A stretch of 64,000 bases of DNA from a phage, in sequence record PZ452596.1. One strand, written 5' to 3'. Positions 4,340 to 42,066 of this stretch are shown one piece after another. The notes under the pieces are model-generated. The model had not been told where the DNA came from and did not search any database. It worked only from the letters and a program-made list of their open reading frames with translations. Position 1 is the first letter of the stretch. Every line of letters begins with the position of its first letter. A program made the translations under genes and the position numbers.

Positions 4340-6022
4340 TTAAACCATTACAGTAAATCGACCAACTTTCTTCATTTGAAGATGCTGACCATATGCTTGC
4401 GGGTCATGGTCTCTATGTGAAATAACAAAAACATTAGTATTTTTTAAACTATCTAAAATAGTTGAAATAGCTTTTACACCTTCAACGTCGGTCGCTGAAT
4501 CAAAAACTTCATCAAGAATTAGTGTGTTTATTTTAACACCTGAAACTTTTTCAGCAATATCACGCCAAGTAAATAAAAGAGCAATATCAATTCGTGCTTT
4601 TTCACCTTGACTGAATGAAGCATAACTAAAATCTTCACGACCACGGGATTTAATTGTCTCATTAAATTCTTCATCTAATGTAAACACATAATCCGCTTCC
4701 ATTATTTTAAGATAATGGTTAATCTGCTTATTAAATAATGGAATGTACTTTTTAATAATAGCACCTTTAATACCAGAATCTTTGAGCATATCAGTCAAAA
4801 TTCCTCGGTGGTATTTTTCCATTACTAAATTAGTTTTTGTCTTAACAATTTTATCAAGTTCTTCTTGAAGCAATGCTATTTCATCAGCGTGGTCAATAAA
4901 CTCAGAAGATGCTTTTTCTATAGCCGCTTTAACTTTTTTAGCTTTATCTACCGTCGTGATTAGAGATTGCTTTTTATTGCGAATATCATTTGCCAACGAC
5001 TGTTGGGTTTTAATATTATCTCGGTATTCATCAACAAGAACTTTTAAATTATCACGATGCGTTGAAAGCTGTTCAAATGAATGTGTGCATTCAGAAACTT
5101 TATCTTTAATTTTAGAAACAACTTTATCACCGGAACTTAATTGTGACAAACAGGTTGGGCATAATCCACCTTCGTGATACATATTAATGACTTTATTATA
5201 CGAGTCAATTTTTGATTTAATTAAAACTGCTTCTTGACCGATTTTATTAAATGCATCAGTCGGGTCTTCATCCAAAACAATATTAACTAATCTTTCATTA
5301 GCTTCTTCTATTTCCGATTTTAGCGTTCTAGCTTCTTTTGCCAAATCATCATACATATTTTGAAGACGTGTAAGGTTGTCACCCGTTAATTTTTTCTGGC
5401 GTTCAACGTTATCATTATATATTTTAATTTGTTGGATAATACTATCTTTTTTAACATCAAGCACTTGGTTTTGTGAATTTAATTCACGTATTAGTGCTTT
5501 ATTAAGCTTATCCATTTCAGCTAATGTTCCTACCTCGAGCAGGTCTTCCACAAGCTTTCTTCGCGCAGGGGTCGACAAACCCATGAAAGGGGTATACCCT
5601 GCTGTACCAAGGACAACAATCTGCTTGAAACTGGCATATGACATTCCGATAAGCTGTTCAAATTCTGCTTGGAAATCTTTACTGCTGGCAGATTCATTAA
5701 GACGTGTACCGTTAACGGTGATTTCGAAAACGTTCGGTTTTTGTCCTCTTTTGATATAGTACTTTTTCTCATCATATTCCATCCACAGTTCAACTAAAAG
5801 TTCTTTCTTATTTGTGCTGTTTATTAATTGGCCTTTCTTTACGTCACGAAATGGTTTGCCAAAAAGCCCAAATGTGATGGCTTCTAACATAGTAGACTTA
5901 CCACCGCCATTTCGGCCAGTAATAAGAGTTTTTTGAACCTTATCTAATTGAATGTCAATAGGATTTCCACCTACTGACATTATATTTTGATACCTAACTC
6001 GGTTTAGTTTAAAATTCTTCAC
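4340..6022 (-). CDS. 46: Recombination endonuclease subunit gp46 (SbcC/Rad50-like ATPase)
   Basis: 560-aa ORF; Walker A GRNGGGKST; apparent GTG start. Confidence 0.9.
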   Translation of the reverse strand: MKNFKLNRVRYQNIMSVGGNPIDIQLDKVQKTLITGRNGGGKSTMLEAITFGLFGKPFRDVKKGQLINSTNKKELLVELWMEYDEKKYYIKRGQKPNVFEITVNGTRLNESASSKDFQAEFEQLIGMSYASFKQIVVLGTAGYTPFMGLSTPARRKLVEDLLEVGTLAEMDKLNKALIRELNSQNQVLDVKKDSIIQQIKIYNDNVERQKKLTGDNLTRLQNMYDDLAKEARTLKSEIEEANERLVNIVLDEDPTDAFNKIGQEAVLIKSKIDSYNKVINMYHEGGLCPTCLSQLSSGDKVVSKIKDKVSECTHSFEQLSTHRDNLKVLVDEYRDNIKTQQSLANDIRNKKQSLITTVDKAKKVKAAIEKASSEFIDHADEIALLQEELDKIVKTKTNLVMEKYHRGILTDMLKDSGIKGAIIKKYIPLFNKQINHYLKIMEADYVFTLDEEFNETIKSRGREDFSYASFSQGEKARIDIALLFTWRDIAEKVSGVKINTLILDEVFDSATDVEGVKAISTILDSLKNTNVFVISHRDHDPQAYGQHLQMKKVGRFTVMV

Positions 6023-6234
6023 AAAAGATTCCTTTTAATGTATCTTTTAGACCATTCTATCATATCATCATAATCTAAAAAGTATTCATCAAATTCAGCC
6101 ATGCAAACAACGCCTTGTGCTGTTTTTGATGTAATGTAAATTATTCCAACATATCTAGAATCTTCTTCGATATAATCAATATTTGCTATGAATTCATCAT
6201 TAATGTCAAATGTCGAAAACTTCACAGTATGCAT
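6019..6234 (-). CDS. Hypothetical protein (46.1 position)
   Basis: Track ORF 6019..6282 trimmed to internal ATG; stop overlaps gene 46 start. Confidence 0.45.
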   Translation of the reverse strand: MHTVKFSTFDINDEFIANIDYIEEDSRYVGIIYITSKTAQGVVCMAEFDEYFLDYDDMIEWSKRYIKRNLL

Positions 6235-12902: not shown

Positions 12903-13373
12903 TTAATCATGTTTCCACACCCCATCGGTATTTGACCAAAGTCGCTGATTGTCTGATCCTCGCCACAGCTTTTTGGTCGGAAGATTTTTCTCATACTTCC
13001 CATCAATAATAACATCAACATATTTAAGCATTTCTAGTTGTTTAATATCTTCAAACTTATATCCTGTCCACAACCAAATGCTTTTATTGGGATAAAGATT
13101 TTTTACTGTTTGAACGATGCAATGAATAACATCTCGGTTATCAGGATAGAGAGGGTCACCTCCGGTTATAGTCAATCCTTCTATATAATCATTATTCAAA
13201 CATTCAATTAATTGTTCTAGTGTCTCTCCAGTGAATGGAACACCATTTCTAGCATTCCATGTTGATTTATTATAACACCCTTCGCATTTATGCAAACAAC
13301 CTGTAACGAAAAGAACGACCCTGCAACCAGGGCCATTAACAAAATCGCAAGGATAAAATCTATCATAATTCAT
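12903..13373 (-). CDS. nrdG: Anaerobic ribonucleotide reductase activase NrdG (radical SAM)
   Basis: 156-aa ORF with CLHKCEGC (CxxxCxxC) motif. Confidence 0.9.
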   Translation of the reverse strand: MNYDRFYPCDFVNGPGCRVVLFVTGCLHKCEGCYNKSTWNARNGVPFTGETLEQLIECLNNDYIEGLTITGGDPLYPDNRDVIHCIVQTVKNLYPNKSIWLWTGYKFEDIKQLEMLKYVDVIIDGKYEKNLPTKKLWRGSDNQRLWSNTDGVWKHD

Positions 13374-15187
13374 TGGTGCTTAACCCTATGCATGATTTCT
13401 TTATTTTTACCGAGATTAAATCCGCGTTCGTTCGGATTTCCCAAATAACCACATGTTCTTCTTATGGTATTCATCTTTTTAGGATCAGTTTCTCCACAAA
13501 TAGAACAAACAAATCCGTTTTCAGTAGGAGTCATTTCATGGGTACTTCCGCATGTAAAACATTTATCTACCGGCATGTTAACACCAAAATAATCTAAATG
13601 TTGTGCAGCATAATCCCATACGGCCTCAAGGCCTTTCAAGTTATTTTTCATATCAGGAAGTTCAACATAAGAAATGTGACCACCTGTCGCAATGAAATGA
13701 TATGGCGCTTCACGAGAAATCTTTTCAAACGGAGTAATATTTTCTTCTACTGAAACATGGAAACTGTTAGTGTACCAGCCTTTATCGGTAACATCTTTTA
13801 CGCTTCCATATTTTTCTGTATCGAGTTTACAGAAGCGATAACAAAGGTTTTCAGCAGGAGTCGAATATAAACTAAAAGCAAATCCAGTTCTTTCAGTCCA
13901 CTGTTTAAGATGAGCATTCATTTTAGTTAAAATTTCTTGTCCAATATCACGACCGACAAGAATATTCAATTCGTGAATACCAATGTATCCCAAAGACACT
14001 GAACTTCTGCCGTTTTTAAATAACTCAATTATATCGTCATCAGGTTTAAGACGAACCCCAAATGCACCTTCTTGGTAAAGAATAGGAGCAACAGTAGCTT
14101 TAACTCCTTTTAAGGAACTAATTCTACACATCAAAGCTTCAAAACACAGATCCATTCGTTCATTGAATAATTCAACAAATTTCTGTTCATTGAACTGTGT
14201 TCCAATATAAGAATCTAACGCGATGCGAGGAAGATTCAGTGTTACAACACCAAGATTATTACGTCCATCAAGAATTTCATTACCAGTCGAATCTTTCCAT
14301 ACGCTCAAGAAACTACGGCATCCCATCGGAGAAACAGGAACAGATGAACCAGTGATAGCTTTATTGTTCTTAGCTGAAATAATATCAGGATACATCCTTT
14401 TGCTTGCACACTCTAGAGCAAGCTGCTTAATATCATAGTTCGGATCGTCTTTGTAAAGATTAACGCCTTCTTCGACGAACATAACAAGCTTAGGAAAAAT
14501 AGGAGTTATCCCATCACGACCAAGACCTTTAATACGATTTTTCAGAATTGCTTTCTGAATCATTCGTTCAGTCCAGTCAGTTCCCGTACCAAATGTAATT
14601 GTTACAAAAGGTGTTTGTCCGTTTGAACTAAAGAGAGTATTTACTTCATATTCATAAGCTTGGAATGCATCGTATACGTCTTTTTCTGTTTTAGATTGAG
14701 CATAATTCAACGCATCAGCGATTTGCCATTTTTCTGCATCCTCAATATGTTTTGCATAGGTGCGTTTAACATAAGGAGAAAGTACTTTATCTACATTCGC
14801 AAAAGTCGTTCCGCCATATTGATGGGAAGCAACTTGCGCAGTAATTTGTGCCATAATTGCAGTAGCAACACCGATTGATTTAGGAGTTTCAATCTGCGCA
14901 TTACCAAGCTTAAATCCGTTCTCAAGCATTCCTTTTAAATCTACTAAACAACAATTAGTAAATGGAAGAGCAGGGGAATAATCAATATCATGGAAATGAA
15001 TAATTCCGCTTTCATGCGCTTTCATAATAAAAGACGGGACCATATTTTTGGCAATGTGTTTAGACACAATACCAGCCATAAGGTCCCGTTGAGTTGGAAA
15101 AACACGAGAATCTTTATTAGCATTCTCGTTTAAAAGGTCTTTATTAGTTTTATGAATCAATCCTTCAATTTCTTTTTCAATTGTCAT
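13370..15187 (-). CDS. nrdD: Anaerobic (class III) ribonucleotide reductase NrdD, uninterrupted ORF
   Basis: 605-aa ORF with C-terminal glycyl-radical motif RRTCGYLG; no intron-like interruption. Confidence 0.9.
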   Translation of the reverse strand: MTIEKEIEGLIHKTNKDLLNENANKDSRVFPTQRDLMAGIVSKHIAKNMVPSFIMKAHESGIIHFHDIDYSPALPFTNCCLVDLKGMLENGFKLGNAQIETPKSIGVATAIMAQITAQVASHQYGGTTFANVDKVLSPYVKRTYAKHIEDAEKWQIADALNYAQSKTEKDVYDAFQAYEYEVNTLFSSNGQTPFVTITFGTGTDWTERMIQKAILKNRIKGLGRDGITPIFPKLVMFVEEGVNLYKDDPNYDIKQLALECASKRMYPDIISAKNNKAITGSSVPVSPMGCRSFLSVWKDSTGNEILDGRNNLGVVTLNLPRIALDSYIGTQFNEQKFVELFNERMDLCFEALMCRISSLKGVKATVAPILYQEGAFGVRLKPDDDIIELFKNGRSSVSLGYIGIHELNILVGRDIGQEILTKMNAHLKQWTERTGFAFSLYSTPAENLCYRFCKLDTEKYGSVKDVTDKGWYTNSFHVSVEENITPFEKISREAPYHFIATGGHISYVELPDMKNNLKGLEAVWDYAAQHLDYFGVNMPVDKCFTCGSTHEMTPTENGFVCSICGETDPKKMNTIRRTCGYLGNPNERGFNLGKNKEIMHRVKHQ

Positions 15188-16638: not shown

Positions 16639-16809
16639 TTAATTTCGCAATTTATTAAGTTCTTCATCATCAATCCAGGATTCTAGTCCTGATGGCAGGT
16701 CACATTCAATTTCCCAAAGAAGTTCTTCAATTTTCTGAAGACGTTCTAGTTCTTCGGCTGGAATAGTAACCATTGACGGAGCTCGTGATACATTAATATC
16801 GTAAATCAT
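16639..16809 (-). CDS. Small hypothetical ORF, 56 aa (MIYDINVSRAPSMVTIPAEELERLQK...)
   Basis: Hand-translated; fills the gap between track ORFs. Confidence 0.3.
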   Translation of the reverse strand: MIYDINVSRAPSMVTIPAEELERLQKIEELLWEIECDLPSGLESWIDDEELNKLRN

Positions 16810-16811
16810 AT

Positions 16812-17027
16812 TTACCCCAATTTAACCATACAATCGCCGTATTTCCACTTAGAAATAGACTTTTCACCATTAGAATAATAAACTTCGAGTTTAGCACGAT
16901 TATTTTTAATTTGAATAACCTTTGCTGTCATCAAAGTTCCATACCCATAATAAACTGCAACTTCATCACCTACATATACCGCGCTTCCGCGGTAATCGTG
17001 AATATAGTCAGTTCCTTCGAGCATCAT
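16812..17027 (-). CDS. Hypothetical protein, 71 aa
   Basis: Track ORF; 4-nt overlap with nrdC start. Confidence 0.5.
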   Translation of the reverse strand: MMLEGTDYIHDYRGSAVYVGDEVAVYYGYGTLMTAKVIQIKNNRAKLEVYYSNGEKSISKWKYGDCMVKLG

Positions 17028-17288: not shown

Positions 17289-17531
17289 TTATTCCTTAAT
17301 TCCTAGTACTTGTTTAAAAGTCTCGTCGTAATCAAGACTTTGGCCCGTTTGTTCTTTATGTTTGTATATAATATCACTTACTTCTGATAGCATATTTTTA
17401 TATGAACGAGTTAAAGCTGATTTAAGCACGCTGTATCTATCAGGAAATTTACCATGTTCATTATAATAAGCTATTGCTAATTCGCGGACTGCCTTTTCAG
17501 CAGTCTCCATATATTCTTTACGCTTTGTCAT
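17289..17531 (-). CDS. Hypothetical protein, 80 aa
   Basis: Track ORF 17289..17672 trimmed to [13 protein letters not shown]. Confidence 0.4.
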
Positions 17532-17832
17532 TTTCTTCTTGGTCAAATCGGTGTTTACAATGGCGGCATTTATAACGAAGATTATTAGTCTGCCAATGGA
17601 CCAATTGCACCTGTTCAGTTCCACATTCAGGGCAATTAGGAACGTTTTTAGAAGCCCTTTCGCGACGTTCAACCATGACCATTACAGAATCCCAATTAAT
17701 AGGGCTGCTATAATCATCACAACCGTGAATCTTTCCACGCATTTCCAAATTGTCTTCTTCACCAGCCATAATAATTTTAATTAGACTAGAATTACTTGAA
17801 GCTGCAATGTCTTCTAATAGACGCTTTTTCAT
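17518..17832 (-). CDS. Small zinc-ribbon protein, 104 aa
   Basis: CPECG...CRHCKH Cys4 pattern. Confidence 0.5.
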
Positions 17833-18755
17833 TTCAATACCTCAATAGCATTACGTAAACCATTTGCTTTTGCATTAAGAGCTTTTAACAATTTGGTGTG
17901 TTCTGCAATTTGGGCTTCAACTTCAATCAAACGAGCATTGAGATATTCGCGTTCTTCTTTCATAGTATCATTCTCATGATTGGATTTTGGCGTAGGTTTA
18001 AATTCACTAGGGTCCTTTAATTTAATAACAAATTTAGTTTCAAACAGTGAAAGACCATAATTCGTATTATCATCAAAGGATTTGACTACATCCATATCAG
18101 ATAATAACACGTGTAAATTATAAGCCAAAGAACTAATAGTTTTATTGTGTTTATTAGCTTCGCGTGGTTTCATATACGGAAGATTTTTATATATCTCATG
18201 CGGAGCGCAAACGATAATTGACAATTCAAATTGTCCATTCTGGGACGATGGAGTGAATTTAGCCGTAACCCAGTCTTTTACATTCACATTAATAGTACGG
18301 TTATCACCATGACAAAACAGTCTACGAGAATGCTTAAAAAGCATATTCACATTATTATTAAATTCGTGTGAAAACTCACTGGCAAATTTTTCTTTACTAT
18401 TTTTAGAAAACCATTCTTCTAAATAAGTTCTTTTCACGTCATTAATAATATTAAATGTAACAACACTAGCATTTGATACATTAGTCTCAATGTAGCTTGG
18501 ATACATAAATTTTTTAACATTATTAACAGCTATCACAGAAGATAGTAATCGGGAACGTTTGAACCACTCGAGCAAAGAACCAAGAGAATGTGAATACGCA
18601 TTTTGTGTATCTTTACAAATATGGTTTTCCCATCCAATATAGTCTAAAAAATCACGAAGAATATTATTGATTACTGCTCTGTGTCCTATCTGATAATTAC
18701 GATATTTAGTAATAAGACTGTCAAAATAATCAATATAATGTTTACGAGTTTTCAT
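17829..18755 (-). CDS. Paralog family member P1: 308-aa protein with C-terminal coiled coil
   Basis: Track ORF; shares the SRRL...GD block and heptad-rich C-terminus with the next three genes. Confidence 0.6.
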   Translation of the reverse strand: MKTRKHYIDYFDSLITKYRNYQIGHRAVINNILRDFLDYIGWENHICKDTQNAYSHSLGSLLEWFKRSRLLSSVIAVNNVKKFMYPSYIETNVSNASVVTFNIINDVKRTYLEEWFSKNSKEKFASEFSHEFNNNVNMLFKHSRRLFCHGDNRTINVNVKDWVTAKFTPSSQNGQFELSIIVCAPHEIYKNLPYMKPREANKHNKTISSLAYNLHVLLSDMDVVKSFDDNTNYGLSLFETKFVIKLKDPSEFKPTPKSNHENDTMKEEREYLNARLIEVEAQIAEHTKLLKALNAKANGLRNAIEVLK

Positions 18756-18807
18756 GTTCTTCTCACTTGGTTAATGATTTATACTCCGAGCCATCCTTGG
18801 CTTTAAA

Positions 18808-19809
18808 TTACTTAATTAACTGTAAAGCTTGTTCCAGACGATCAAGACGATTAACAGATTCTTCCCAAATCTTTTTAGCCTGCTCATATTCTTTCTGCGC
18901 TTTATTAGAAATTTCTAGAACTTCTTTATAAGCTTTTTCTAGTGCAATAACTTCTGGACGAATTTCTATCGGTTCAGGTGAATCGTCAAGACATTCCATT
19001 AGTTCCTCAAGGGTAGTTTCTTCTTTAGGAGTATTCACAATTTCATCACATTTTTGTTGATAAATTTCTTTATCAGTAGGTGAGTACGCGCACTTTACTT
19101 CACGAAGACTAATTACAATTTTATATCCTTCCCAGCCGCATATATTCTTAAAAGGATATGTATGAATATTTTCTACTGTTTCCATACAAAGTAATGCGGT
19201 CTCTAATTGACGAGTTATAGTGCTAGCAATTGAGAAAAATTTATTAATGTTCTTTTGGTTAGTTTCTGGTGTAAAAAATCCATAATTCACAAAAATAGCT
19301 GCTTTATTTTTATCAAGTTCATATTCTTTTATGATAATCATATCAGAAGCCCAAGGATGAATTTGACGATAATCGCCATAGCATAATTTAGAAGCTGATT
19401 TTAAAATTTGCTTTTTGAAAAGTCTGAAATTACTGATCCAACGACGAGTAAAAATATTCTCAGGGTCTTCTTTATTATTAAGATGATAAGAATTAACATC
19501 ACCGAACCAATTATATCCTACTACATCTTTAGTTCGTTTAATTTCTTTCCCAAAATTACCAAGAATATCCCGATTAACCAAATATGAAAGAAGACGAGAC
19601 TCTTTAAAGGTTTTCTTGATAACATCTTTATCTACACGGCTAGAAATTTTATGAATTTCATGAATAAATTTAGTAGAAGAAACAATACTTGCATCAACAC
19701 TATTGAGCCATTGATTGATAATAGAAAGAACGACATTTTGACCAAACATCGGTATAGCTTTATCATCAATAACGCTATTGAATGATTTGATATATTCGTT
19801 ACGAGTCAT
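18808..19809 (-). CDS. Paralog family member P2, 333 aa
   Basis: Track ORF trimmed to MTRNEYIK (RBS GAGGAG, directly downstream of the early promoter at 19848-19876). Confidence 0.6.
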   Translation of the reverse strand: MTRNEYIKSFNSVIDDKAIPMFGQNVVLSIINQWLNSVDASIVSSTKFIHEIHKISSRVDKDVIKKTFKESRLLSYLVNRDILGNFGKEIKRTKDVVGYNWFGDVNSYHLNNKEDPENIFTRRWISNFRLFKKQILKSASKLCYGDYRQIHPWASDMIIIKEYELDKNKAAIFVNYGFFTPETNQKNINKFFSIASTITRQLETALLCMETVENIHTYPFKNICGWEGYKIVISLREVKCAYSPTDKEIYQQKCDEIVNTPKEETTLEELMECLDDSPEPIEIRPEVIALEKAYKEVLEISNKAQKEYEQAKKIWEESVNRLDRLEQALQLIK

Positions 19810-19847
19810 ATTAATCTCCTCAGTAGAAAGTAAGAACATTATACCAC

Positions 19848-19876
19848 ATCCTTGTGGCAAAGTAAACTAGTTCAGT
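19848..19876 (-). promoter_or_regulatory. T4-type early promoter (TTTACT - 17 nt - TATAAT)
   Basis: Seen on the minus strand just upstream of the P2 RBS. Confidence 0.5.
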
Positions 19877-20886
19877 GCATTTAGTGCATTGTTCAGTTTA
19901 GAACGTTGCTTTGTCAGATTTTGAACCCTTGACTGAGCTTGTTCTAACGCCTTTTCAGCTTCTAGCACTTCATTGGTCGCTTTAATGAGTTCATCATCTA
20001 CTGCCTTAAGAGACTTCTCAATCGCGTCAGCGTGCCATTTTTCTACAGGTTTAAAATTTGAATTTTCAGTAGGAAGAAAACTCACTTTATTAAGTTTACA
20101 TGCATCTATATTGCTTGAGCTATACATCCAAAATTTAGGATCGTTTGATAAGTAATTGGATAAATTTAAGTTATCTTGCACTTCCTGCTTTTTCTCTTGC
20201 GGGACTTCGTCCTTTCTCAAAAAATCGTATTTAAATGAAACGATCATATCAAGTTCATATGATGTTGTATCTAACTTAAATCGTTCAAAACGAGGTAAAA
20301 TCTTAGATTGAACAGCAGCAACAACATCCATATACTTAAATGCTTCTGTCAACTGTGATTTAAGGCATTCACAAATTGAAAGAGAATTTTTTGTATTAGG
20401 TTTAAAGCTAATTCGTGCAGTTCTATTATTTTCTTTTAATGGTCTTACTTCCATTTGAAGAGTATAACAATCAAATTTCAGATTCTTTAAGTTAATATCA
20501 GAACCTTTTAATCGACTAGCCGTCGACAAAATTTGCTTCAATTGTTTACGGAATAGAGCAATAAATCTCCATTCAATACGATAATGATTTGGATTAAAAA
20601 ATCCAGATGATAAATCGACCTTACTCTGACCAACGCCTTGAACAAATAGAGGATTTTTATAATCAATAGTTTTACAGAAATCGGTGAGCTGCTCACGAGC
20701 AGTCATTTGTGTAATATACCCCGCTTTACTAAAATGACGTAACAATTCACTGCTATTTAGATATTTAAAGTGAATAGCACGATTAACTTTATCAGGGTCT
20801 AAATTATTTTCACACAAAAATGTCATAACATTACGAGTATCGCTGGCAGTACGAACCATATCTTCAATTTGAGAACGAGTTTTCAT
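19867..20886 (-). CDS. Paralog family member P3, 339 aa
   Basis: Track ORF; motif FRKQLKQILSTASRLKGSD matches P2 FKKQILKSASKLCYGD. Confidence 0.6.
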   Translation of the reverse strand: MKTRSQIEDMVRTASDTRNVMTFLCENNLDPDKVNRAIHFKYLNSSELLRHFSKAGYITQMTAREQLTDFCKTIDYKNPLFVQGVGQSKVDLSSGFFNPNHYRIEWRFIALFRKQLKQILSTASRLKGSDINLKNLKFDCYTLQMEVRPLKENNRTARISFKPNTKNSLSICECLKSQLTEAFKYMDVVAAVQSKILPRFERFKLDTTSYELDMIVSFKYDFLRKDEVPQEKKQEVQDNLNLSNYLSNDPKFWMYSSSNIDACKLNKVSFLPTENSNFKPVEKWHADAIEKSLKAVDDELIKATNEVLEAEKALEQAQSRVQNLTKQRSKLNNALNALN

Positions 20887-20894
20887 GGTGTTCC

Positions 20895-21782
20895 TTAAGA
20901 TTTAAGTAAATCAACAATTTTAATTAACTTTTCACGCTCAGATTTAGCTTTACTACTCAATCCGGATAGTCTAAAGATTTCATCGTCATATTGTTGAATA
21001 GAAATATTCAGCTCTTCAATTTGCTTATTAAAATAATCAATTTGCTCAGAATGTTTTTCGTTACTACGAACTGGTACAGGTTTTGTAGGCAATTTAGTTG
21101 AACTGGATTCATTCGGGCGATAAATTAAAATGCAATTTGAACCAATCGGGCATTTAGCACCAGATGAATATTCTAATGTTCCGGCTTCTTTTAAAACTTC
21201 AAAAGCTAAACAGAGATGATACCCCATATTAACATAATCTGTAGAGTGAGCTCTGATATAATAATCATCGCCGCGAATACTAAATTTAAAGCATTTAAGG
21301 TCTTCTGTATTATTGGTCTTAAAAATCATTTGTTTATCTAGACCTTTAGCTAATCGAGCGCCTAATGCTAATAATCGTCGTTGATTTTCCCACAAATCCG
21401 CAATCATTTGGTCAAATGATAATTTTGGCATTAGTCGACCATAAAGGTCATATCCTTTATTATAATTACGAAGGATTTCACTCGCATTAATACGAGACAA
21501 CGCTCCAATTTTATTAAGGGCTTTCATGATGCGATTAGATAAACCCATTCCAGACCCGTTTGTTCGTTGTAAATGTTTATCTAATCCAAACCCAATATCA
21601 ACTTTAAATTTATCTAAAATTTCAGCATGAACATCTCTGTCAATAACATTCAAATCCAAAGTTGGGTTAAATCTATGAAAAAATTTATCTGGCTCTCCAC
21701 GACGAAGTACAGTCCATTCATTCAATTTTTTATTAACTAAAGATTTAATTACTGCATTGACATTATTAATTACTACTGACAT
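20895..21782 (-). CDS. Paralog family member P4, 295 aa
   Basis: Track ORF (TTG start) trimmed to ATG MSVVINNVNAV. Confidence 0.55.
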   Translation of the reverse strand: MSVVINNVNAVIKSLVNKKLNEWTVLRRGEPDKFFHRFNPTLDLNVIDRDVHAEILDKFKVDIGFGLDKHLQRTNGSGMGLSNRIMKALNKIGALSRINASEILRNYNKGYDLYGRLMPKLSFDQMIADLWENQRRLLALGARLAKGLDKQMIFKTNNTEDLKCFKFSIRGDDYYIRAHSTDYVNMGYHLCLAFEVLKEAGTLEYSSGAKCPIGSNCILIYRPNESSSTKLPTKPVPVRSNEKHSEQIDYFNKQIEELNISIQQYDDEIFRLSGLSSKAKSEREKLIKIVDLLKS

Positions 21783-21793
21783 ATTTTTCTCAC

Positions 21794-21973
21794 TCAATTT
21801 TCAATTTTACTAAATACACAGAATATGATTGAAAAGACTATATAAGCACCGCACACAGATTGAACTAATACCATTCCAAAGAACCAAATAATATTATCAA
21901 ACAGTGTCTGTTTTACGTCGAAAGGACGTAAACTTACAGTAATATTATCACCTTTTTCTATTGAAGAATACAT
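21794..21973 (-). CDS. Small membrane ORF, 59 aa (possible C-terminal half of a frameshifted gene)
   Basis: Hand-translated MYSSIEKGDNITVSLRPFDVKQTLFDNIIWFFGMVLVQSVCGAYIVFSIIF...; overlaps the 3' end of ORF 21958..22200 in another frame. Confidence 0.3.
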   Translation of the reverse strand: MYSSIEKGDNITVSLRPFDVKQTLFDNIIWFFGMVLVQSVCGAYIVFSIIFCVFSKIEN

Positions 21974-22200
21974 CTCTGGTGAAATATATTCACTAAATCT
22001 ATAACCGTCTTTGAGTTCATATACAGAGCAATAAACGATAAACTAGACCCCTTTCCTTGAGTTCCTGTAAGGGTATTAACTACAGTAACATCATAATCTT
22101 TATAATGCATATAATCATTAATTGCGTAATAACCATATGCAACTACTACACATAAACAACATATCAATAAATTCAATCTTTTAATTATCAACTGTTTCAT
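21958..22200 (-). CDS. Hypothetical membrane/secreted protein, 80 aa
   Basis: Track ORF with hydrophobic N-terminus. Confidence 0.4.
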   Translation of the reverse strand: MKQLIIKRLNLLICCLCVVVAYGYYAINDYMHYKDYDVTVVNTLTGTQGKGSSLSFIALYMNSKTVIDLVNIFHQRCILQ

Positions 22201-22255
22201 AATAATCTCAATTAAAAGGGCTTAGAACCATTATACCATCCTTGGTATAAAGCGG

Positions 22256-22783
22256 TTATGCGAGTACCGTCTTTAACCGTTCTTCAAACTTCCGAAGAGT
22301 ATTCTGGCGTTCAGCTCTTTGCTTTTTGTAAGTTTCAATACGCTCTGAAATGAGAGTGTATCGTTCATTTACTGATTCTTTCATAAAATCAGGAATTTCA
22401 CGAGAAGCTTTAATCTCGTCAAATTTATCAATAACAGCTTGCTCTTCAGCAATTAAATTATCATACATCAAAATATCTTTCTTGATGAACTCAATATCTT
22501 CTTGAGTTACACGAGATAATTTAGATGCTTTATCCTTTTTGTACTGTTCGTTAGTATCACGAGACCAGTGTAATGTACGATTTTTATTCGTATTCTTATA
22601 AATTTCTACAATACCGATCTCGTCAATAATAACGATCCAATTCCAACAGGATTTGTAAATTTGTCCTCCATCAACTGTGATTTCACCACCAATTGAGACA
22701 TCATTAAAGAACTTGCTTTGAGCTTCAGATTTAAATTTACCATCGTTATAATTTACCAGGTTGAAAATATCTTTAGCGTTCAT
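22256..22783 (-). CDS. Hypothetical protein, 175 aa, coiled-coil C-terminus
   Basis: Track ORF; RBS GGAGG; directly downstream of early promoter. Confidence 0.55.
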   Translation of the reverse strand: MNAKDIFNLVNYNDGKFKSEAQSKFFNDVSIGGEITVDGGQIYKSCWNWIVIIDEIGIVEIYKNTNKNRTLHWSRDTNEQYKKDKASKLSRVTQEDIEFIKKDILMYDNLIAEEQAVIDKFDEIKASREIPDFMKESVNERYTLISERIETYKKQRAERQNTLRKFEERLKTVLA

Positions 22784-40000: not shown

Positions 40001-40033
40001 CCAAAAAGCCCCAACCTTTCGGCTGGGGCTAAG
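39998..40033 (-). terminator. Rho-independent terminator, copy B (end of the tRNA transcription unit)
   Basis: GCCCCAGCC-GAAA-GGUUGGGGC hairpin followed by UUUUUGG. Confidence 0.55.
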
Positions 40034-40078
40034 CCTTGCGGCAACCTTGTCGGGGTTCCACCTGCTAAGGCAAGTGTT

Positions 40079-40240
40079 TGTACGAAACGCCGGGATTCGA
40101 ACCCGGTTATTAAGCAGTTGACGCTACTCAATATTTTTAAAAGGCCATATCTCGACCATATCCGAACGTTCCGTCAAAAACGCTACTCGGCTTACGGCAA
40201 AGATATTTCCTCGAATCGATAATTCGGTGCGCCGTTTCTG
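40079..40240 (-). ncRNA. Probable stable structured RNA downstream of tRNA-Arg (T4 species 1/2 RNA position)
   Basis: tRNA-like T-arm CCGGG-UUCGAAU-CCCGG and terminal acceptor-like pairing; between tRNA-Arg and the terminator. Confidence 0.3.
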
Positions 40241-40346
40241 CTGTGATATAAGAGGACATTAACAAAACATAAAGATTTATTAATGCCAGTCCTTAAACAG
40301 GGAACATCAGTCCGACGACTTGCCGGTAGCGACCCGGCTTCTTGTC

Positions 40347-40422
40347 TGGTCGAGGCAGTAGGGATCGAACCTACGACCCAGGACTTAGAAGGTCCTTGCT
40401 CTTCCTTCTGAGCTATGCCTCG
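40347..40422 (-). tRNA. tRNA-Arg (anticodon UCU), CCA encoded
   Basis: Hand-folded cloverleaf: 7-bp acceptor, T-loop UUCGAUC, anticodon loop CUUCUAA. Confidence 0.8.
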
Positions 40423-40426
40423 GATT

Positions 40427-40501
40427 TGGCGGACGTGATAGGATTCGAACCTATAACCAATCGCTTAACAGGCGATCGCTCTGCCATTGAGCTACACATC
40501 C
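40427..40501 (-). tRNA. tRNA-Asn (anticodon GUU), CCA encoded
   Basis: Hand-folded cloverleaf; anticodon loop CUGUUAA; T-loop UUCGAAU. Confidence 0.75.
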
Positions 40502-40505
40502 AAAT

Positions 40506-40592
40506 TGGTGGGGAGTGATGGAGTCGAACCACCCGAGTCGCAATGACAATGGATTTACAGTCCACACCGCTACCTCTACGGGATAACTCCCC
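40506..40592 (-). tRNA. tRNA-Tyr (anticodon GUA), long variable arm, CCA encoded
   Basis: Hand-folded; anticodon loop CUGUAAA; 15-nt variable arm; T-loop UUCGACU. Confidence 0.75.
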
Positions 40593-40601
40593 TAATTAAT
40601 T

Positions 40602-40676
40602 TGGTGGCCCTGGGTGGAATTGAACCACCATCTGGCGATTATGAGTCGCTTGCTTGAACCTTCCAGCTACAGGGCC
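40602..40676 (-). tRNA. tRNA with CAU anticodon (Ile2/AUA-reading type as in T4, or elongator Met)
   Basis: Hand-folded; anticodon loop CUCAUAA; anticodon stem lacks initiator-type GGG/CCC pairs. Confidence 0.7.
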
Positions 40677-40677
40677 T

Positions 40678-40753
40678 TGGTGCTGATTGACGGAATCGAA
40701 CCGCCGACCTTCTCATTACAAGTGAGTTGCTCTACCTACTGAGCTAAATCAGC
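40678..40753 (-). tRNA. tRNA-Thr (anticodon UGU), CCA encoded
   Basis: Hand-folded; anticodon loop CUUGUAA. Confidence 0.8.
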
Positions 40754-40758
40754 AAAAC

Positions 40759-40848
40759 TGGCGGAGGCGATAGGATTTGAACCTATGAGTCGCCGGAGCG
40801 ACTGCCGGTTTTCAAGACCGGTGCATTAAACCACTCTGCCACGCCTCC
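40759..40848 (-). tRNA. tRNA-Ser (anticodon UGA), long variable arm, CCA encoded
   Basis: Hand-folded; anticodon loop CUUGAAA; 18-nt variable arm. Confidence 0.8.
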
Positions 40849-40850
40849 AG

Positions 40851-40924
40851 TCTCCATACAAGGATTTGAACCTTGGACCTCCTGATCCCAAATCAGGCGC
40901 TCTACCAAACTGAGCTACACGGAG
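40851..40924 (-). tRNA. tRNA-Pro (anticodon UGG), CCA not encoded
   Basis: Hand-folded; anticodon loop UUUGGGA. Confidence 0.75.
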
Positions 40925-40934
40925 TAAATTAAAT

Positions 40935-41008
<74 letters not shown>

Positions 41009-41013
41009 AAATT

Positions 41014-41100
41014 TGGTGCGAGAAGTGGGACTCGAACCCACAAGGAAATCATTCCGCAGCATTTTAAGTGCTGTGCCTTTACCAATTTGACCATTCTCGC
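41014..41100 (-). tRNA. tRNA-Leu (anticodon UAA), long variable arm, CCA encoded
   Basis: Hand-folded; anticodon loop CUUAAAA. Confidence 0.8.
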
Positions 41101-41101
41101 G

Positions 41102-41174
41102 CTGGGAATAAAGGACTCGAACCTTTGCATCTAGCAGTCAAAGTGCTATGCCTTACCAACTTGGCTAATTCCCA
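41102..41174 (-). tRNA. tRNA-Gln (anticodon UUG), CCA not encoded
   Basis: Hand-folded; anticodon loop CUUUGAC. Confidence 0.75.
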
Positions 41175-41260
41175 ATTATTAACAAAGGCTCTCTAACAAG
41201 AACCCTTGATGATAGAGGGTATTAATCAGTGCGGTATGAGTTAATAATAACAAATATTTC

Positions 41261-41776
41261 TTAAAGCAAATCAACCATTTTAACAGTCGGCAAAACAATT
41301 TCTTCTTCGATATAAGCAAATTCTACATGTTCAACTACACGCAAGAAATCATATTCATAGTATTCAGAAGCATGACCAAGAATATCAATGAGGCCTTCAG
41401 ATATCTTATTACCATTCACAAAGAATAAATCAAATACACGTTCTTCATCTTCTTCGGATTTATTACCAAGGTCAACTTCTATATCAAAGACCTTTTTAAT
41501 GAATTCTGGATAAAGTTGGTCTGAGAACAGTCCTTCAACCAAATATTCATATATAAAAAGCTCTTGCTCGCTGAACAACCCATTACCACAATAACGGTCA
41601 GCTTTAGTACTAGAATGACGACTCTTAAACTTCTTCAAAAGATATTTAAATTGTTGGAGCTCATGCTCTTCTACGCCAAACAGTGTTTTGGTTTTATAGT
41701 TATCACCATCATTTTCCCAGGTAGTGACATCAATTACGTAACCCTTAGGAATTGTGCTGCCTAAACGAATATACAT
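41261..41776 (-). CDS. Hypothetical acidic protein, 171 aa
   Basis: Track ORF; ATG overlaps the end of the upstream ORF in another frame. Confidence 0.5.
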   Translation of the reverse strand: MYIRLGSTIPKGYVIDVTTWENDGDNYKTKTLFGVEEHELQQFKYLLKKFKSRHSSTKADRYCGNGLFSEQELFIYEYLVEGLFSDQLYPEFIKKVFDIEVDLGNKSEEDEERVFDLFFVNGNKISEGLIDILGHASEYYEYDFLRVVEHVEFAYIEEEIVLPTVKMVDLL

Positions 41777-42066
41777 TTGTTCACCATATTAATGTAAGTA
41801 TATTTAATACATTCAAGACCCAAAGGATTCTTGAAAATATCATATTCAAGAGGACCTTTTTCTGTTTCAATAAAGAAATCAAAATTTACTGTATTAAATT
41901 TACGGTCTTCCTTCACTAATTTAACTTGAGAAGATGAACGGTCAATGTAAACCTTTTCAACTTCAAAACATGTTAAAATGCCATAATCATCAATCAAGGC
42001 TTTAGCCGCATCTTGATCATATTTATATCCATTTTCAACGGACGATACTTTCGCATAAAGAATCAT
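41761..42066 (-). CDS. Hypothetical protein, 101 aa
   Basis: Track ORF. Confidence 0.5.
   Translation of the reverse strand: MILYAKVSSVENGYKYDQDAAKALIDDYGILTCFEVEKVYIDRSSSQVKLVKEDRKFNTVNFDFFIETEKGPLEYDIFKNPLGLECIKYTYINMVNKCIFV

Follow-up and report, generated by a model that had tools for sequence, protein, structure and literature searches.

The best described relative of the locus treated here is the early gene nrdC.5 of phage T4, which counteracts Dsr1, a SIR2-domain defense protein (Srikant et al. 2022, PMC9391042). A T4 clone that had evolved with a compensatory deletion of nrdC.5 was unable to plate on ECOR17 and on MG1655 with the ECOR17 dsr1 gene, and expression of nrdC.5 alone restored plating of this deletion clone on dsr1 cells (PMC9391042). 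In this study, we analyzed a 64,000-nucleotide (nt) stretch of phage DNA (sequence record PZ452596.1, in its full length referred to as the window), in which four consecutive minus-strand open reading frames (ORFs), ORF1 to ORF4, include an ortholog of nrdC.5. A preliminary description, made from the sequence alone, had taken these ORFs for a tandem family of four paralogs with coiled-coil tails, possibly shaped by diversifying selection as seen for host-interaction or anti-defense effectors.

A second system of this kind is found in Bacillus phages. DSAD1 is phage-encoded and non-enzymatic, and it neutralizes the defense-associated sirtuin DSR2. DSR2 senses the tail tube, whereas the sensor of E. 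coli Dsr1 is reported to recognize the phage major capsid protein (2026 study, PMC13581612). The resemblance between DSAD1 and the NrdC proteins that is considered here is one of function only.

Identity of the four genes

Bases 17500-22300 of the window are 100% identical to Enterobacteria phage RB27 (KM607000), and the same 4.8 kb share ~95% DNA identity with T4. The gene order of RB27 is that of the T4 annotation (AF158101): ORF1 to ORF4 correspond to nrdC.3, nrdC.4, nrdC.5 and nrdC.6, flanked by nrdC.2 and nrdC.7, within a block that runs from nrdD/gp49/pin/nrdC to nrdC.11 and in which the neighbors also lie on the minus strand. The four genes are the RB27 orthologs of the T4 prereplicative genes nrdC.3 to nrdC.6 (Table 1), and their families are labeled below as A (nrdC.3/ORF1), B (nrdC.4/ORF2), C (nrdC.5/ORF3) and D (nrdC.6/ORF4). 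The cluster itself is not new, as the genes are already annotated in T4 and have Pfam and PHROG families. The match of ORF3 to DUF7235 (PF23882) has a score of 381.7 bits (cut-off 30) and covers profile positions 1-307 of 307; the PHROG family of ORF3 is phrog_2351. ORF4 matches phrog_2257 over its full length with an expect value (E) of 7.5e-153, and its relatives are labeled PF26899; the label PF26897 is carried by all database relatives of ORF2.

Table 1. Positions in the window of the four genes, their shared segments and the promoter-like sites around them (aa, amino acids).
Feature	Position	Strand	Evidence
ORF1, nrdC.3 ortholog, 308 aa	17829..18755	-	90% aa identity to T4 NrdC.3; phrog_1435 full length, E 9e-100
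ORF2, nrdC.4 ortholog, 333 aa	18808..19809	-	98% aa identity to T4 NrdC.4; phrog_1435 full length, E 3e-168
ORF3, nrdC.5 ortholog, 339 aa	19867..20886	-	93% aa identity to T4 NrdC.5; Pfam DUF7235
ORF4, nrdC.6 ortholog, 295 aa, most divergent paralog	20895..21782	-	98% aa identity to T4 NrdC.6 over 258 aa
Internal block of ORF1, FKHSRRLFCHGDN, residues 140-152	18300..18338	-	hhalign with ORF2 block; superfamily alignment
Internal block of ORF2, FKKQILKSASKLCYGD, residues 131-146	19372..19419	-	hhalign A-B and B-C; superfamily alignment
Internal block of ORF3, FRKQLKQILSTASRLKGSD, residues 112-130	20497..20553	-	hhalign B-C; C profile aligns block to IME523 NYNWRMILTLGSRL
Internal block of ORF4, RRLLALGARLAKGLDKQ, residues 135-151	21330..21380	-	D profile aligns block to the same IME523 segment, NYNWRMILTLGSRL
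Predicted C-terminal heptad-rich helix of ORF1, ~residues 262-308	17832..17972	-	best window starts at residue 278; score reached by 0.7% of shuffles
Predicted C-terminal long helix of ORF2, residues 285-332	18814..18957	-	AlphaFold; heptad score reached by 1% of shuffles; least variable part
Predicted C-terminal long helix of ORF3, residues 280-338	19873..20049	-	AlphaFold; heptad score reached by 0.3% of shuffles
Predicted C-terminal helical tail of ORF4, ~residues 245-295	20898..21050	-	best heptad window here, score reached by 12% of shuffles (not significant); 0 variable columns in 12 orthologs
Early-type promoter-like site upstream of ORF2	19838..19866	-	TTTACT, 17 nt, TATAAT, TG extension; GTTTAC at -35; 10/12 match to consensus
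Degenerate copy of the ORF2 promoter module upstream of ORF1	18778..18807	-	ATTTAAAG-CCAAGGATGG-CTCGGAG-TATAAA; read from sequence
Promoter-like site upstream of nrdC.7	22230..22253	-	GCTTTA, 12 nt containing CCAAGGATGG, TATAAT; read from sequence

The coordinates, lengths and reading frames that had been assigned to the four ORFs are correct. That a single frameshifted gene has been broken up into these ORFs, or that they are chance ORFs, is scarcely credible: nothing but their adjacency on the same strand speaks for it, and each ORF has its own ATG, Shine-Dalgarno-like sequence and stop codon, the gaps between ORF1-2, 2-3 and 3-4 being 52, 57 and 8 nt, one of them with a promoter-like site. 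Each ORF also has its own family model and recurs as a distinct, full-length gene in over 500 records (tblastn: 654 for ORF1, 554 for ORF2, 544 for ORF3 and 742 for ORF4). With hundreds of such records, the four cannot be pieces of one gene, and this reading is refuted by their separate conservation and their own gene signals.

In the T4 record AF158101, the 3' end of nrdC.6 carries a 1-nt deletion (gagctg-atattt) relative to RB27 (window 20895-21100). The deletion shifts the frame, giving a protein of 275 aa that has lost the conserved C-terminal helix, and other T4 records encode the full 295 aa. It is either a sequencing error or a mutation of a laboratory strain.

Paralogy of the four proteins

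Among the four proteins, BLASTP finds only the ORF1-ORF2 pair at a significant level (E 3e-4, 23% identity over 275 aa), the other pairs having E values of at least 0.08. Taken alone, plain pairwise BLASTP would wrongly have led us to reject the kinship of the four genes. Family alignments were built from database relatives together with the same locus from eleven other phages. Shallow profiles gave weak B-C and A-D signals only, and diverse members from other genera were needed. With these, hhalign gave probabilities of 98.4% for A-B, 83% for A-C (over 279 columns) and 76% for B-C (over 248 columns), and of at most 2% for D against each of A, B and C.

The profile-profile scores were then set against column-shuffled nulls (30 shuffles for C-D), with the C-terminal tails cut off first. 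The tail-less scores were 102 for A-B (null 15±2.7), 40.8 for B-C (null 13.9±2.5), 33.1 for A-C (null 14.3±2.3) and 24.4 for C-D (null 13.3±1.8, with a null maximum of 17.0, so that the score lies above all 30 shuffles); these significant scores of the globular parts exceed their nulls by 6-30 standard deviations. Independently of the tails, membership in one superfamily was found for A-B, A-C, B-C and C-D, and was not found directly for A-D and B-D, the scores of which (17.7 and 19.6) are at the null level of 14-15±2.5.

Two single-copy proteins, encoded at the same locus in phages of other genera, bridge the families. That of Klebsiella phage P545 (P0234-like, 315 aa) is matched by the hidden Markov models (HMMs) of A (1.5e-5), B (7e-11) and C (3e-15), and that of Enterobacter phage IME523 (335 aa) by those of C (7e-11) and D (3e-10). 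The match of the D HMM spans positions 117-290, including the internal block described below, and aligns IME523 residues 146-333; ORF4 also reaches the IME523 protein in phmmer searches (E 1e-5), and the same protein belongs to the A/B/C set. For iterative HMM searches, 352 ORFs were used as the database, spurious ones being included as decoys; whether started from A, B or C, the search ended with an identical set of 23 proteins, and unrelated ORFs were never recruited. Against 1.84 billion representative proteins, the A/B-family HMM matched only 10 clusters, which yielded the bridging protein P0234, and no C or D members were among these matches. At the level of predicted structure, Foldseek searches with the ORF2 model found NrdC.3 (E 1e-7) and NrdC.6 of phage JS10 (E 5e-5, probability 1.0), the latter as a full-length match with template modeling scores (TM-scores) of 0.39/0.45.

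The weakest link is nrdC.6. One could argue that only nrdC.3, nrdC.4 and nrdC.5 are paralogous, with nrdC.6 being unrelated and resembling them by chance in size, position and helical tail. This would account for the null-level scores of D against A and B, for the D-seeded iterative search, which collected the D family plus IME523 and never reached A/B/C members, and for the lack in D of both the N-terminal M(K)TR and a significant heptad score (see below). It leaves unexplained why the C-D score is higher than in any shuffle, why the D HMM aligns, block included, a protein that the searches from A, B and C pick up as well, and why the NrdC.4 model matches JS10 NrdC.6 over its full length. We therefore consider this explanation unlikely.

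These comparisons demonstrate that nrdC.3, nrdC.4 and nrdC.5 are homologous, and nrdC.6 is probably homologous to the other three, via the bridging protein and the Foldseek match. The idea of a tandem four-member family is thus supported for diverged tandem paralogs by profiles, bridging proteins and Foldseek, while an all-against-all alignment of the four bears it out only in part (ORF1-ORF2 by BLASTP; four of the pairs, A-D and B-D excepted, by profiles). At the DNA level, the paralogs have just one repeat in common, a 19-nt stretch (ATGAAAACTCGT) at the start codons of ORF1 and ORF3, which indicates that the duplication is not recent. Databases keep three families apart (phrog_1435/PF26897, phrog_2257/PF26899 and DUF7235), whereas profiles, bridges and structure join them here; we did not find this joining into one superfamily in the searchable literature, and it may be new. 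The nearby gene nrdC.8, which has a similar QR..L tail, was considered as a fifth, truncated member and was rejected (hhalign probabilities of at most 1.2%).

Conserved motifs and predicted structure

The internal block that the four proteins had been said to share is genuine. It aligns column for column, with the consensus F..Q/K.IL..A.+L..GD, and other motifs (F+.SR.LS....AR..L..FG; QL..AL..M..V; an ending L..AL..L+) are colinear with it. An N-terminal M(K)TR is invariant in the nrdC.3, nrdC.4 and nrdC.5 families and in Klebsiella P0234 (window positions 18744-18755, 19798-19809 and 20875-20886), and is lacking in nrdC.6. Aligning the A/B/C superfamily leaves just four columns without variation (T3, R4, F70 and V189), and scans of Pfam, NCBIfam and PADLOC found no enzyme, defense or other informative domain. 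This agrees with the earlier remark that no catalytic motif is visible, and the proteins are best read as non-enzymatic, since no catalytic residues are conserved.

The AlphaFold model of NrdC.4 (ORF2) has a predicted local distance difference test score (pLDDT) of 82.5 and a predicted TM-score (pTM) of 0.67. It consists of helices at residues 3-84, an alpha/beta region at 88-235, two helices (246-259 and 267-272) in a linker of low confidence (pLDDT under 50 at 261-265 and 276-280) and a helix at 285-332. The NrdC.5 (ORF3) model has the same order of elements, ending in a helix at 280-338; its fold is not independent evidence, because its alignment contained A/B sequences. The two models suggest a common layout for nrdC.4 and nrdC.5, namely an N-terminal helical domain, a disordered linker and one C-terminal helix of 48-59 residues.

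Coiled-coil tails had been claimed for all four proteins. For each of them, the best 28-residue heptad window was compared with shuffled sequences, and in all four this window falls within the C-terminal tail. The heptad periodicity is significant for ORF1 to ORF3, which are predicted to have coiled-coil tails (scores reached by at most 1% of shuffles; single long helices in the models of ORF2 and ORF3), and it is not significant for ORF4 (12%).

The predicted alpha/beta core may resemble the fold of tail terminator or tail completion proteins (lambda gpU, T5 p142, SPP1 gp17-like, DUF3168). We treat this as a fold-level lead from the models, not as membership: no sequence match of the family to tail terminators was found in Pfam, PHROG or the PDB, the PDB gave no match at all by sequence (single protein and profile), and the genes are minus-strand genes of the early region, so that neither sequence nor a late structural context places them among tail terminators. 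A tail-terminator-like core was not found in the searchable literature for these proteins, and may be new.

In the NrdC.6 of Shigella phage Sf25 (P0122, 378 aa), a stretch of ~83 aa directly before the C-terminal helix is duplicated in tandem, IRAHSTDYVNMG...FNKQIEEL occurring twice.

Distribution, copy number and evolutionary rates

In sequence, the family does not reach beyond the T-even-type phages. Structural comparison recovers full-length relatives (300-375 aa) from T4-like phages of Pectobacterium, Enterobacter, Acinetobacter, Erwinia, Serratia, Yersinia, Klebsiella, Citrobacter, Salmonella and Aeromonas. Among the structural matches in BFVD, E5EYP0 (318 aa, with the NrdC.4 model) and E5EYP1 (348 aa, with the NrdC.5 model) have consecutive UniProt accessions, which suggests a tandem pair in another T4-like phage.

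Across genera, the copy number ranges from 1 to 4. The Tequatrovirus locus has nrdC.6,.5,.4 and.3. Gaprivervirus (VR26, CJ20), Dhakavirus (Bp7) and the unclassified YenM_P8 have.6, a divergent.5 and.4, without.3; Mosigvirus (G2285, ESCO47) has a divergent.6 and.3, to which Mosigvirus ZQ3 adds a divergent.5; Marfavirus and Kanagawavirus have one copy. Since none of the four types is limited to a single genus, the expansion to four copies most likely took place before the T-even coliphage genera split, and was followed by differential loss.

Natural deletions have also been observed. Phage ACG-C40 (locus 5802-6213) has retained nrdC.6, but of nrdC.5 only 216 nt are left, and of nrdC.3 only the final ~70 codons; its deletion runs from nrdC.5 into nrdC.3, so that nrdC.4 and most of nrdC.5 and nrdC.3 are gone. 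The protein P0120 (299 aa) is an nrdC.5-nrdC.3 fusion, in which the middle of NrdC.5 is joined to the C-terminal half of NrdC.3, and nrdC.4 is missing. The genes are accessory, being dispensable both in nature and in the laboratory.

Diversifying selection, as had been suggested for the cluster, is not demonstrated. The gene-wide ratios of nonsynonymous to synonymous substitution rates (dN/dS) of the RB27 genes against T4 and RB6, respectively, are 0.26 and 0.37 for nrdC.3, 0.22 and 0.26 for nrdC.5, 0.10 and 0.21 for nrdC.4, and 0.07 and 0.08 for nrdC.6, all of them below 1. The flanking genes mostly have ratios of 0-0.12; nrdC.3, nrdC.5 and, in part, nrdC.4 exceed most of these, and nrdC.6 does not. 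Between RB27 and RB6, nrdC.3 is 62% identical with a synonymous rate (dS) of 0.8, next to nrdC.1 and nrdC.2 with 98-100% identity and dS values of 0.04-0.13. Across records from otherwise near-identical Tequatrovirus and Mosigvirus genomes, the identity of nrdC.3 falls into three classes (at least 90%, ~61% and ~56% at the aa level). Such divergence beside near-identical neighbors, together with the three classes, amounts to allele replacement, and on these comparisons some members of the family evolve faster than others, with swapping of alleles. Within the proteins, variation among Tequatrovirus orthologs is greatest in the N-terminal helical domain and the linker and smallest in the C-terminal helix (8-12% variable columns; 0% in nrdC.6).

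Promoters

The second gene had been credited with an early promoter of its own, and a predicted site of the sigma-70/T4-early type is indeed present within the 57-nt gap upstream of ORF2 (Table 1). It is kept as GTTTAC(T/A)T..CCAAGGA(T/C)GG..GTATAAT in T4, RB6, YenM_P8, VR26, Bp7 and CJ20, and is thus conserved in Dhakavirus and Gaprivervirus. A promoter scan over the whole region was at the chance level (29 sites versus 30.5 expected), and only this intergenic site, conserved across genera, was retained from it. Its -10 element overlaps an upstream ATG, from which some databases start a 343-aa form, and this makes the 333-aa start sensible.

The module that is degenerate upstream of ORF1 is intact (GTTTACAA-CCAAGGATGG-TTGGAG-TATAAT) upstream of the nrdC.3-like gene of Mosigvirus ZQ3. 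The geometry of the site upstream of nrdC.7 presumably fits the consensus of T4 middle (MotA-box) promoters. ORF3 and ORF4 have no promoters of their own and, going by the predicted sites, are probably read from this one.

A spacer motif, CCAAGGATGG or its variant CCACAAGGATGTGG (possibly a small hairpin), lies between the -35 and -10 elements upstream of nrdC.3, nrdC.4 and nrdC.7 (minus strand, 18791-18800, 19842-19855 and 22236-22245), and recurs upstream of nrdC.3/nrdC.4-type genes in other genera. The exact 10-mer CCAAGGATGG occurs at only two places in the 64 kb, both within the cluster. The promoter module may have been duplicated along with the genes, or the spacer motif may be a regulatory element. 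Rfam, searched with both strands of the region, gave nothing credible; the sole match was Hovlinc (E 0.11), under the gathering score.

Other features of the window

A frameshift near 22021-22027 divides the nrdC.7 of RB27 (window 21794-22200, minus strand) into two ORFs, 80 and 59 aa long; in T4, the gene encodes a predicted membrane protein of 133 aa. The nrdD gene (13370-15187, minus strand) is one uninterrupted ORF of 605 aa in RB27, whereas T4 nrdD is split by an intron carrying I-TevII. At 16639-17027 (minus strand), two small ORFs (56 and 71 aa) are present in RB27 and RB6 where T4 has gene 49.3. The skew between guanine and cytosine (GC) changes sign near 46 kb (window ~46000), possibly where the prevailing direction of transcription switches, and a local GC peak of 0.42 is found at 40001-42000.

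Discussion

ORF3 is the ortholog of T4 nrdC.5, with the same neighbors and a full-length DUF7235. The anti-Dsr1 activity was shown for the T4 protein, not for the RB27 allele, and in the study that described it, no kinship with nrdC.3, nrdC.4 or nrdC.6 is considered (PMC9391042). Nothing beyond that study was found in the searchable literature on the function of nrdC.3, nrdC.4 or nrdC.6, on the anti-Dsr1 mechanism, or on DUF7235. From the similarity of the two alleles, we infer that RB27 NrdC.5 keeps the activity. The role in host interaction or anti-defense that had been proposed for the cluster therefore has experimental backing for one member (T4 nrdC.5 against dsr1), and nrdC.3, nrdC.4 and nrdC.6 may also target defense systems, judging from their homology, dispensability and variability.

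On balance, we think it probable that the four genes are ancient tandem duplicates of one gene restricted to T4-like phages, and that they encode non-enzymatic and probably oligomeric early binding proteins which neutralize immune proteins of the host. Each protein would be built from the variable N-terminal helical domain, the alpha/beta core, a disordered linker and the long C-terminal helix. The proteins would bind host proteins stoichiometrically early in infection, with inhibition probably by direct binding; the variable N-terminal helical domain and the core would confer target specificity, and the conserved long C-terminal helix would provide oligomerization or a shared docking site. 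Different paralogs would then have different immune targets. Several of our observations weigh against this: functional data exist for one of the four genes only; the link to nrdC.6 is transitive or structural only, its direct scores with A and B being no better than the null; the confidence of the NrdC.5 model is modest (pLDDT 67.7) and its alignment includes the A/B family; and dN/dS is below 1 for all four genes, with nrdC.6 constrained like its housekeeping neighbors and unlike a gene in an arms race.

The strong conservation of nrdC.4 and nrdC.6 (dN/dS 0.07-0.21), the nearly invariant C-terminal helix, the presence of the family in many T4-like genera with very different hosts, and the lack of a published defense phenotype for three of the four members could also be explained if the proteins were early factors of host takeover or physiology. 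They would bind non-immune proteins, the effect on Dsr1 being a side effect or specific to one paralog. We take this possibility seriously, yet regard it as rather doubtful: phages do without these genes in nature as well as in the laboratory, copy number and alleles differ between close relatives, and the sole member tested has a defense-specific phenotype.

The fold-level lead on the core allows a further, speculative version of the anti-defense role, in which the superfamily consists of early mimics of a virion-protein fold (tail terminator/completion) that serve as decoys or plugs for shape-sensing immune receptors. Their targets would be sensors such as those of the Dsr1/Avs7 type and members of the Avs family that sense tail terminators; the paralogs would be tuned to different receptors by the variable N-terminal domain and multimerized by the C-terminal helix. 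We consider such mimicry quite improbable at present. If it were true, nrdC.3, nrdC.4 and nrdC.6 would be three undiscovered anti-defense genes.

What is gained here is an ordering of known genes, not a discovery of new ones. Even in T4, the reference lytic phage, a function has been described for just one of the four genes. If the four descend from a single gene, with one copy proven to counteract a defense, then nrdC.3, nrdC.4 and nrdC.6 become concrete anti-defense candidates, as do the relatives that Klebsiella, Enterobacter, Acinetobacter and Aeromonas phages carry in a single copy. The predicted domain map (N-terminal domain variable, core tail-terminator-like, C-terminal helix invariant) should guide experiments on these proteins, and the results would be relevant to phage host range and to therapy cocktails made from T-even phages.

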